Part shown: positions 17,514 to 20,510 of the stretch, piece by piece
How positions within the stretch are numbered: the stretch's first letter is position 1
Layout: each line of letters starts with the position of its first letter
Source of the DNA: Dictyostelium discoideum
Lineage: Eukaryota
NCBI GenBank assembly: GCA_000004695.1
Contig: CM000155.2
Location: 1,440,001 to 1,504,000, forward strand
DNA: 64,000 nt
Reading direction: 5' to 3'
The notes under the pieces: model-generated
Databases searched by the model: none
Told to the model about the DNA's origin: nothing
What the model saw: the letters and a program-made list of their open reading frames with translations, nothing else
Program-made: the position numbers and the translations under genes

Positions 17514-20233
17514 ATGATAAAAACAATCTTAATTAAATTAATATTATTAGTGATATTTTGTTATCACTTTTTATTTGCAGAAGGTATTACATTTTATCTT
17601 AAATAAAAAAAAAATTAAAAAAAAAAAAAAAAATAAAAAAAAAAAAAAAAAAAAAAAATAAAAAAAAAATTACTGAAATTTTAATATTTAAATAATCACT
17701 TTTAGAAGATGTAATTAGTACCCCTCCTGGATATTATGATTTAATACGTCACAAAAGGGATCCACCTATTACAGAATATCAATCATCTCAAGATACAGAT
17801 TTATATTACCCTGATGTTTGCAGAAATGCTCTTAGACCTCTTGATTATCCTTGGATTAACGAATTTGCCCCTATTTTTTTTCCAGGCTTCAACATGGGTG
17901 GCTTTAATAGTATATTCATCCCAAAAAGTAATTGTTTTTTATTTTTATATTTATTTTTATTTTTATTTTTATTTTTATAATTATTATTATTATTATTATT
18001 ATTATTATTATTATTATTATTATTATTATTATTATTATTATTATTATTATTATTATTATTATTATTATTATTATTATTATTATTATTATTAATAACTAAC
18101 TATCAATTAATTAATATAGATAGATCAATGATATTCAGGACTCCATTTCAAGATTCATTAGTAACTTTACATGTTGTGTGCATTGAGGGTACCTTTATTG
18201 TTGAAGGGAATAGATTTCTTTTTGCTAATACTATAATTGTTCTTCCTGGTGGAAGATTTGAAAGTACTACAGGAATAGAATTTTATGACGAAAATGATTC
18301 CGGAGTATCATTTTATCCAGATTTACCAAAGGATCCTTCTGGATTCTTTCCAGGTATTCTTGTATTGGGTGGTTCAATTTCAGTAGTTGGGAAAGAACCA
18401 ATAGTATATAGAGCAAGCCGTATTAATGATTCATCGATAGAGATAAGTCCACCAGTTCCAGAGATAATTATTTCACCAAACCCATGGGATAGAGTTTATA
18501 AGTTAGTTAAAATATTTACAGAATTATATCCTCTAGGATTTTATTGTAGATATAATACAGATGAAGTAGGAAAGATTCTTTCATTATCTTCTTATCTTTT
18601 ATACCCTTTCCCACCAGTATCAGAGAATGACAAAATCATCAGAGTATTAGTTGAAACTGATAGACAACAGACTGTGATCCCAACAAATATCTACAAGAGA
18701 GAGTATGCAACCAAAGGTTCAATTTACATAACAGGTGGATCAAATGCATATTTTAAAAATATCTTTTTTAAAAATCTAGGTTTCACCAAAAATGAACCAT
18801 ATAATGATACAAAGTTAATATTCTCTCCAAATGATACCAATGTAGTAACCGATATAATAATGGGAACAAATCAAAAATTCAGAAGTTCGTTGTATATTGA
18901 ATCCTCAAAAAATGTTACAATAGAAGGTTGTGCATTTGTTGAAAACGATCTAACAAGATCACCATTGGTTTTCTTTGATTCGAATGTAAAAATATCAAAC
19001 AGTTTAATTTCAAGTAAATCAGGTTCAAATATAATCGCTCTACATGGTACTGATTCAATTCAATCTTCAAACAATTCTTATTTACTTGAAAAAATCGATT
19101 TGGCTTCATGGGATGTTGAACGAAATAATAATATTGATTGTGGTAATCAAGGTAATGGTATTTTTTCAATTTCTCCAAATATAAACTCAAATGGTGATTA
19201 TTTCTCTGGTCAACAAACTGCATTCAACTATTATTTTATTCCAAACAACTCTGTAAACTCTAACCAAGATAATAGCTCATTAAATTCAAGACCAATTGAA
19301 ATTATTATTAAAGATTCAATGTTCAATCCAACAGCTTCCAATGGTTCTTTAAATAAATATTTTTTAAATATCAATACTGATGGTAATAAAACAATAAGTA
19401 CCTATTTCACAGTTAGGGATTTAAAAACTTCACATGCCATTAACATGAATTTAAACAATAGTGCTATTGCCTTTTACAATTTAAAGGGTGGAGAAGGTTT
19501 TAAAATGGAAGGAAACGTTGAAAGATTGGATATTATTGGTTCAATTATCAATTCAAATGGATCAATTAAAAACATTTCAACATCAACTACAAATATCATT
19601 GATTCTTACATTTACAGTTCATCATCAGATATTCAACCATTCAATAATCAAATCTATGGTTCACTAATTACACCCTATTACTATAGCGATTCAAACACTT
19701 TAGATAAATTTGAAATAAAATCAATACTTCCAAATGCACCCATTCAAATCGTTTCAGGTTCACTTTTTAATGTCAGTGTCCAAATTCAAACTTTATCGTC
19801 ATCAGTTTCAATAGATAATATCTCATGTATTTTTACTTCAAGTGTAATCAATACAACAGTTGTCCAAGTTAATTCTAATTACAGTTGTATTTTACCACTA
19901 AATATTACCAATGAAGAGGGTCCACTCAATCTTAGAGTCACTTTAGTTAATAACACATCACCATCATCAGTATCATCAGACAATTATTTATATATTATCG
20001 ATTTTCCAGAGATTACAGTATTTAATACCTATGAGTTTTATTCAGGATGGTTAATGGATAATTCAAATTCTAGTCAACAAATTTCTTTTGGAGGCAATTC
20101 ATTTAAAAATGGATGTAATAAAGTTGATAGCAATTGTACAATATCACAGAATTCAAAATATTCAACAGTATTTTCCCAACTTTCAATAACTTTACCTTCA
20201 AATTTCAAAACAAAAACTCATTGGATGAAATAA
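17514..20233 (+). CDS. Secreted or cell-surface glycoprotein of ~800 aa, 3 exons (17514..17583, 17706..17927, 18120..20233). An out-of-frame Pro/Thr-repeat tail lies at 20134..20508.
   Basis: Exon 1 reads '[24 protein letters not shown]', a signal peptide. Its donor is GAA G|GTATTA, and the acceptor is cacttttag|AA.

Exon 2 reads '[74 protein letters not shown]'. Its donor is AAA A|GTAATT. The intron carries a ~120-nt (ATT)n microsatellite, and the acceptor is ttaatatag|AT.

Exon 3 is the 701-aa ORF, with very many N-x-S/T sequons. About 90 nt before the stop, a -1 frame (tool ORF 20134..20508) continues as '[55 protein letters not shown]...' and then 24-nt (T/S)PT(E/L)(S/T)PT tandem repeats. 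See findings. Confidence 0.6.
17971..18090. repeat. (ATT)n microsatellite of ~120 nt within intron 2 of the glycoprotein gene.
   Basis: Perfect trinucleotide repeat. The spurious tool ORF 17814..18092 reads it as poly-Tyr. Confidence 0.95.
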
Positions 20234-20289
20234 ATATTGCGTTCACAACAAGAGGCGATATTTATTTAACATCAATGGCAACTTATTCA

Positions 20290-20510
20290 TCCATTGAAGT
20301 TGAACCACCAATTGAAACTCCAACTCTATCACCAACTAAAACTCCAACTGAAACTCCAACACAATCACCAACTGAATCACCAACTCTATCACCTACTGGA
20401 TCACCAACTGAATCACCAACACTATCACCAACTCTATCACCAACCGAAACACCAACTCAAACACCATCTGAAACACCAACTCAAACACCAACTCTATCAC
20501 CAATTTAAAC
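20290..20510 (+). repeat. Coding tandem repeat (12/24-nt units, ACTCCAAC[TA]...) encoding (S/T)PT-rich linker repeats.
   Basis: 'ACTCCAACTCTATCACCAACTAAAACTCCAACTGAAACTCCAACACAATCACCAACTGAATCACCAACT...' is repeated about 9 times. Confidence 0.8.

Follow-up and report, generated by a model that had tools for sequence, protein, structure and literature searches.

What breaks the reading frame between the body of the Dictyostelium discoideum gene gdt7 and the Pro/Thr-rich tail that lies immediately downstream of it? The locus lies in a window of 64,000 nucleotides from strain AX4 (GenBank GCA_000004695.1, contig CM000155.2, positions 1,440,001 to 1,504,000 of the forward strand); all coordinates given here count from the first letter of this window unless another locus is named. 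An earlier sequence-only reading had described an apparent -1 frameshift between a body open reading frame (ORF) and the tail, and the frameshift is real: the stop codon of the ORF lies at 20231-20233, and positions 20131-20505 are open in the -1 frame. We found that a block of 244 nt has been deleted at the point where the two frames meet. With a probability of about 0.9, we read this as an AX4-lineage deletion in exon 3 of a kinase-less gdt7 that truncates the gene, and thus as ordinary decay. Mechanistically it is nothing new.

A three-exon model with GT/AG borders (17514-17583, 17706-17927, and 18120-20233) encodes 801 amino acids. The encoded protein is identical throughout to DDB_G0292314 (XP_629698.1; UniProt Q54DE3), the growth-differentiation transition protein 7 of AX4, and the curated protein terminates at the same stop, 20233. 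The “701-aa exon” of the sequence-only reading has the correct length and end (ORF 18128-20233, 701 amino acids, with TAA at 20231-20233); it is not a standalone exon, being an ORF within the third exon of this gene. The parts that are still in the ancestral frame are:

17514-17583, + strand: gdt7 exon 1, with the start codon and a hydrophobic, signal-peptide-like N-terminus (GT/AG-bordered model).
17706-17927, + strand: gdt7 exon 2 (GT/AG-bordered model; the homolog tblastn matches span 17705-17926).
18120-20168, + strand: portion of gdt7 exon 3 in the ancestral frame; all homologs align as far as 20161-20167.

The G+C content is 21% across the window and 3-7% in the gdt7 introns. Intron 1 (17584-17705) is almost pure poly(A), and intron 2 (17929-18119) consists almost wholly, especially at 17977-18092, of ~38 (ATT)n microsatellite units with (TTTTTA)n ahead of them.

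To place the break we used two further assemblies, in which the gene is collinear with the window: GCA_054859355.1 (locus L001, protein P0001 of 959 amino acids, ~87-93% identity) and GCA_054859385.1 (locus L003, protein P0018 of 981 amino acids, ~87-91% identity). Because the genes on either side are the same as those in the window, including the downstream myosin-RhoGEF gene, these are orthologous loci. The myosin gene served both as the synteny anchor and as the control for the ratio of nonsynonymous to synonymous divergence (dN/dS). It is a large gene at 23604-29363 on the + strand, and its L001 ortholog has Myosin_head, RhoGEF, and PH domains, which makes it myoM-like.

In blastn, the alignments of both orthologs stop at window position 20168 and restart at 20162-20169. 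An explicit two-register alignment with L001 showed that the registers to the left and right of the junction are offset by exactly 244 nt, and that the extra ortholog block (L001 12646-12889, 244 nt) is absent between window positions 20168 and 20169. At the junction, the window reads ...ATATTCAACAG directly followed by TATTTTCCC...; in L001, the left flank is ...ATATTCAACAG followed by GTTTACC..., and the right flank is ...CCAATCAAAAG followed by TATTTTCCC.... As 244 = 3 × 81 + 1, the sequence downstream of the junction is in the -1 frame. The junction and the segments beyond it are:

20167-20169, + strand: deletion junction; AG (20167-20168) is a 2-nt microhomology inside an imperfect (6/7) direct repeat TCAAnAG.
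20168-20233, + strand: out-of-frame C-terminus, 21 amino acids and the TAA at 20231-20233; in the protein alignment the AX4 row (P0017) leaves all relatives after KYST.
20167-20300, + strand: relic of the last three beta-strands of a predicted jelly-roll domain, in the -1 frame and outside the annotated product (translation, tblastn, and alignment).
20301-20523, + strand: relic of a Pro/Thr-rich (PT) stalk in the -1 frame, a 12-nt (4-amino-acid) tandem repeat in 18.6 copies (Tandem Repeats Finder and translation).

The missing block is conserved well beyond the two orthologs. A frame-corrected protein query recovered 16 Dictyostelium relatives, mostly of 1350-1560 amino acids and with a C-terminal Pkinase or PK_Tyr_Ser-Thr domain; the kinase-bearing ones are members of the GDT receptor-kinase family (PMC1420674). 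Thirteen relatives align to both flanks of the junction in tblastn, and all show one pattern: a left block that runs as far as 20161-20167, a right block that picks up at 20167-20179 in the other frame, and ~80 query residues without a counterpart in the window. Both orthologs and every paralog aligned there have ~81 additional, highly conserved residues between “...NSKYST” and “SIFPTFNNF....” Where AX4 departs, the relatives read “GLPNV...LFSNGITS...YQIQLFFTH.PID...PLSIYIENQ.VFLLEP..S” and then resume with “PTF(N/K)NFTFK(F/Y)(Q/E)NKNSL(D/E).INIAF.” Near-invariant residues in the missing block include L783, P784, F802, G805, Q829, Q831, and F834, as well as T835, P838, I839, D840, N852, and E859. 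The block is also present, in frame, in the gdt6 protein of AX4 itself (P0019) and in proteins of D. firmibasis, D. citrinum, and D. dimigraforme. Given its conservation in all paralogs, including gdt6, the event was a deletion in the AX4 lineage and not an insertion elsewhere.

Several other relatives were considered as orthologs. P0002, P0003, and P0007 were ruled out, as they adjoin an M1-aminopeptidase gene and not myoM; these paralogous loci were used for polarity alone. P0006 (D. cf. discoideum) was set aside as a syntenic ortholog as the end of its contig cuts the gene before the region of interest.

GCA_054859355.1 and GCA_054859385.1 are both labelled Dictyostelium discoideum, and their synonymous divergence (dS) from AX4 is ~0.06-0.08 at gdt7 and at the myosin gene (comparison over window positions 8098-30717). 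Such divergence is far above the usual level between conspecific isolates and suggests cryptic species.

The out-of-frame tail is recognizably part of the same family of proteins. Its 125 open codons would arise by chance with a probability of ~4e-6, based on base composition, and they carry Pro/Thr repeats of the form (TxTP)n. Residues 863-958 of P0001 match window positions 20167-20490 in tblastn (E = 5e-39). The final 21 amino acids of the annotated gdt7 are ancestral sequence read out of frame. From these alignments, the body and the PT tail belong to a single ancestral ORF. Full-length relatives have the PT segment between the conserved ectodomain and the transmembrane helix “LALKIALPICLSLALL...” (protein alignment), a position that makes it an extracellular stalk. 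The sequence-only reading had recognized it as such, and the comparison with paralogs and orthologs that it proposed has now shown the tail in frame with the body in the relatives. It had passed over a second stop, a TAA at 20506-20508 that is in frame within the PT repeats (CCA ATT TAA where the repeat unit is CCA ACT CAA), and also the missing transmembrane and kinase parts. Gene ends within or after the repeats differ by lineage, with an indel leading to TGA in L001, an internal TAA in L003, and the TAA in AX4.

The GDT family comprises Dictyostelium receptor-like TKL kinases such as gdt1 and gdt2 (Goldberg et al., 2006; PMC1420674). Its members are laid out as a signal peptide, a large conserved ectodomain, a PT stalk, a transmembrane helix, and a kinase domain. 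The gdt7 protein has the signal-peptide-like N-terminus and the conserved ectodomain, with E values of 0 to 1e-140 against kinase-bearing members over ~700 amino acids (phmmer and tblastn). No counterpart of the transmembrane helix was found after the PT repeats in any frame. No kinase domain was found either: Pfam returned 0 families on the AX4 product, while P0002 and P0013 match PF00069 and PF07714. Searches with the C-termini of paralogs (tblastn) detected no transmembrane or kinase remnants near gdt7 in the window, in L001 and L003, or in L002, the same locus in an independent assembly. As these parts are missing from all four, gdt7 was a kinase-less partial copy before the AX4 deletion occurred. 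The gene is related to the GDT receptor kinases but, having no kinase domain, is not one itself.

One kinase match in the window, at 59885-60361, was rejected as a remnant of gdt7 as it belongs to an unrelated gene. This protein-kinase gene lies at 59762-60514 on the + strand, in ORF 56912-60622, and has weak tblastn matches (23-28% identity) to the kinase domains of GDT paralogs. A full-text literature search on the expression of gdt7 or DDB_G0292314 returned nothing relevant.

The nearest kinase-bearing relatives (P0002, P0004, and P0005) are at another locus, adjoining the M1 aminopeptidase gene, and form a three-copy cluster in one strain. In D. cf. discoideum GCA_054859235.1 (L005:1587-21214), three tandem gdt7-like genes are interleaved with M1 aminopeptidase fragments. 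Two encode full receptor kinases (1389 and 1499 amino acids), and one model ends within the transmembrane helix (948 amino acids). This cluster is a case of active family birth and death, at a locus other than that of AX4 gdt7.

What the deletion destroys can be described from a structural model. No Pfam family covers the AX4 product or the ectodomain of the intact orthologs, nor any other part of the GDT ectodomain, and the fold was therefore assigned using AlphaFold2 (AF2) and Foldseek. The AF2 model of the intact ortholog P0001 has a predicted local distance difference test (pLDDT) of 67 and a predicted template-modelling score (pTM) of 0.60. It shows a long beta-helix (~90-600), an immunoglobulin-like (Ig-like) sandwich (~629-733), and a final beta-sandwich (~740-903), followed by the disordered PT stalk. 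When modelled alone, the last domain reached a pLDDT of 73 and a pTM of 0.75. Its Foldseek matches, with template-modelling (TM) scores, were:

CBM35: TM 0.45-0.55.
Malectin-like ectodomain of the plant ANXUR1/2 receptor kinases: TMq ~0.6.
Eph receptor ligand-binding domains: TM ~0.46-0.5.

The membrane-proximal module of GDT proteins is thus predicted to be a jelly roll of CBM35/malectin-like type, a likeness at the level of fold in a medium-confidence model. On the model of P0001, the ancestral-frame part of exon 3 encodes the beta-helix, the Ig-like domain, and the first ~47 jelly-roll residues. The deletion takes out P0001 residues 782-862, comprising one helix and five strands, and the frameshift puts the last three strands out of frame, so that ~47 of the ~170 domain residues are left. 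As for the order of domains in the GDT ectodomain, the jelly roll (L001:12597-13181, P0001 residues 735-906; window counterpart 20020-20300) follows the beta-helix and the Ig-like domain, a layout that recalls plant CrRLK1L (ANXUR/FERONIA-type) receptor kinases.

We weighed four other explanations for the broken frame. According to the first, which concerns only the route by which the block was lost, the gene recombined with a cDNA copy of an aberrantly spliced transcript and thereby lost an “exitron.” We consider this improbable. The 2-nt ambiguity at the junction lets the block be written as GT...AG (GTTTACC...CAAAAG), in one of three equivalent placements, and the exon that was hit is the 3′-most one, with both 5′ introns kept, which may fit 3′-biased loss mediated by reverse transcription. 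However, AG/GT is not unusual at junctions formed at random, the donors used in gdt7 are of the GTAAGT type, which GTTTAC matches poorly, and all relatives have the block as conserved coding sequence. Its GC content (29.9%) is like that of the exon (29.3%) and unlike that of the gdt7 introns. Splicing also fails to mend the AX4 gene as it stands, as the sequence-only reading had stated: no GT...AG intron in 20120-20233 restores the frame, and this region has 29% GC against the 3-7% of the introns.

The second explanation is that programmed or fortuitously efficient -1 frameshifting occurs at a slippery heptamer, A_AAT_TTC, with the help of a downstream hairpin, so that some of the protein carries the PT tail. 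The two elements are:

20200-20206, + strand: heptamer of the form X_XXY_YYZ (A_AAT_TTC) in the 0-frame register, coincidental, being one of 12 such in-frame heptamers in the coding sequence.
20218-20297, + strand: AU-rich hairpin within ancestral coding sequence, of unusual stability for its base composition, inner stem at ~20230-20265, with a minimum free energy of -22.6 kcal/mol (z ~-4.5 to -5).

In its favour, the heptamer precedes the stop and has the correct register, a stable hairpin starts 11 nt downstream of it, and the stem is slightly strengthened, relative to the orthologs, by two AX4-side differences (GCA to GCG, and ATT in place of the ATC of L001 and L003). We nonetheless regard this explanation as very unlikely. 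L001 and L003, whose frame is continuous, already have the heptamer and hairpin, and the inner stem is also predicted in the paralogous loci L004 and L005. The hairpin is a by-product of coding for “EINIAF...GDIYL,” and the heptamer has 11 equivalents elsewhere in the same coding sequence. The usual spacer between heptamer and structure in -1 frameshift signals is 5-9 nt, which the 11 nt found here exceeds. Moreover, the shifted product would still be without 81 conserved residues of a single domain and would stop at the TAA at 20506 without a transmembrane helix or kinase domain, and no relative needs a frameshift, as all are in frame. The sequence-only reading had likewise ranked a programmed frameshift as the least likely cause, a judgement that is supported. 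It is equally hard to credit that fortuitous frameshifting yields a minor AX4 isoform with the last three jelly-roll strands and the PT stalk. If it did, the isoform would represent an accidental frameshift “rescue” immediately after a deletion, with a PT stalk that could be O-glycosylated.

The third explanation is a one-base sequencing or assembly error in a homopolymer run, with the true gene reading on into the PT tail. The sequence-only reading had located the shift in this run, “caaaacaaaaactcattgg”:

20207-20216, + strand: A4/A5 run, not the lesion; its run lengths are equal in the intact orthologs L001 and L003.

Such runs are error-prone, and a 1-nt correction at this one does open the frame, but there is next to no chance that it is the cause. 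The sequence “caaaacaaaaactcattgg” is the same in L001 and, but for a single C/T substitution with no effect on the lengths of the A runs, in L003, and TTCAAATTTCAAAACAAAAACTC, which contains the run, is identical in L001 and of equal run lengths in L003. As the intact orthologs share these run lengths and read the run in the tail frame, the run is not the lesion. In addition, the tail-frame homology begins at 20167/20169, ~40 nt upstream of the run, and a mended run would still leave the 81 conserved residues absent. An error in the reference is excluded by an independent assembly, GCA_054883475.1 (L002), which encodes the same 801-amino-acid protein and has DNA that is 100% identical to the window over 20000-20719. 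The proposed homopolymer error thus falls away. The suggestion of a recent pseudogenising indel, made in the same reading, was correct as to the kind of cause; the position, size, and mechanism are different, the lesion being the 244-nt deletion between 20168 and 20169.

Differences between L002 and the window lie almost solely in one low-complexity stretch. In detail, 26 of the 27 substitutions cluster in ~280 bp of intergenic sequence (21574-21856) and are mostly to T, a pattern that may have arisen because one of the assemblies has this homopolymer-rich region misassembled or misaligned.

The fourth explanation, that the 244-nt block was inserted in the L001/L003 lineage and that AX4 is ancestral, could appeal to there being only two syntenic orthologs, both ~7-9% diverged from AX4, but has almost nothing left to it given that every paralog whose alignment covers the region, gdt6 among them, has the block in frame and with strong conservation, and that the AX4 frame breaks without it.

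We return to the reading of gdt7 as a gene truncated by deletion and in decay. Both a disabling lesion inside a conserved region and a homologous continuation out of frame are present in gdt7. Outside the repeats the tail spans 137 nt, in which AX4 and L001 differ at four sites; read in the ancestral frame, all four differences are synonymous. This comparison suggests that, relative to the AX4/L001 split (dS ~0.08), the deletion is recent.

Several observations weigh against decay. The dN/dS of the gdt7 body between AX4 and L001 is 0.46, below 1; the value is 0.33 between L001 and L003, and 0.22 for the myoM control between AX4 and L001. Polarised changes number 15 nonsynonymous to 8 synonymous in AX4 and 17 to 9 in the other lineage, and these totals (23 versus 26) show no relaxation particular to AX4 and are too few to separate the lineages. 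The remaining 780 codons in the ancestral frame are without further stops, and a truncated secreted product could still be useful. The orthologs with the intact block are unusually diverged for “D. discoideum” (dS ~0.06-0.08), and L002 is probably of the same NC4/AX lineage, thus silent on the frequency of the deletion in wild populations. The gdt7 ectodomain is fast-evolving in general. We infer that AX4 gdt7 is a decaying gene or pseudogene and not a working receptor.

The course of events begins with loss of the 244 bp between 20168 and 20169 in the AX4 lineage, probably recently and probably by end-joining or replication slippage, with AG as the microhomology at the junction. This took away 81 highly conserved codons and one base of the membrane-proximal jelly roll and left the downstream sequence in the -1 frame, such that 21 junk codons are read before the TAA at 20231-20233. 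The remainder of the domain, like the PT stalk, persists as an untranslated relic with its own TAA at 20506-20508 and no transmembrane helix or kinase domain after it. The AX4 product, if made, would be a secreted fragment of beta-helix and Ig-like domain with a broken last domain.

These results matter chiefly for annotation. The last 21 residues of Q54DE3 are out-of-frame junk. As gdt7 lacks its last ectodomain module, stalk, transmembrane helix, and kinase domain, it should not count among the functional GDT receptors when the transition from growth to differentiation is studied. The gene offers a dated example of birth and death in a Dictyostelium-specific receptor-kinase family, proceeding from partial copy to microhomology deletion to nonsense mutation. 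The 244-bp size difference is also a simple PCR marker that distinguishes the AX4/NC4 lineage from divergent “D. discoideum” lineages.

In comparison with known systems, gdt7 resembles canonical -1 programmed frameshift signals in having an in-register heptamer and a downstream hairpin. It differs in that these elements were inherited from in-frame ancestors, that relatives do not share the frameshift arrangement, and that the ORF further downstream is defective. With malectin-like and CBM35 ectodomains (CrRLK1L ANXUR1/2; PDB 5y92 and 6fig), the GDT domain shares its predicted fold (Foldseek E ~1e-5, TMq up to 0.61), and CrRLK1L and GDT receptor kinases alike carry the domain in their ectodomains. 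The likeness is one of fold, taken from a medium-confidence model, with ~10-14% identity and no Pfam match. Unlike in the known systems, the domain is destroyed in AX4 gdt7.

Within the GDT family, gdt7 is homologous to kinase-bearing members in its N-terminus and ~750-amino-acid “gdt” ectodomain (39-77% identity) and matches the family layout in its intron positions and PT stalk. It departs from the family in being without a transmembrane helix and kinase domain, in AX4 and in the syntenic orthologs alike, and AX4 gdt7 further loses the last ectodomain module and the stalk from the frame through the 244-bp deletion. The closest precedent is the set of pseudogenes of Dictyostelium kinase families that are masked by truncated gene models, including Gdt3_ps (“Protein Kinase Pseudogenes” in Goldberg et al., PMC1420674). 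Here, the lesion is a 244-bp deletion and not a point frameshift or nonsense codon, and gdt7 is annotated as protein-coding and fell outside the kinome survey since it has no kinase domain. As in those pseudogenes, however, gdt7 was born by duplication, has kept its introns, and is represented by a gene model that merely truncates the ORF.

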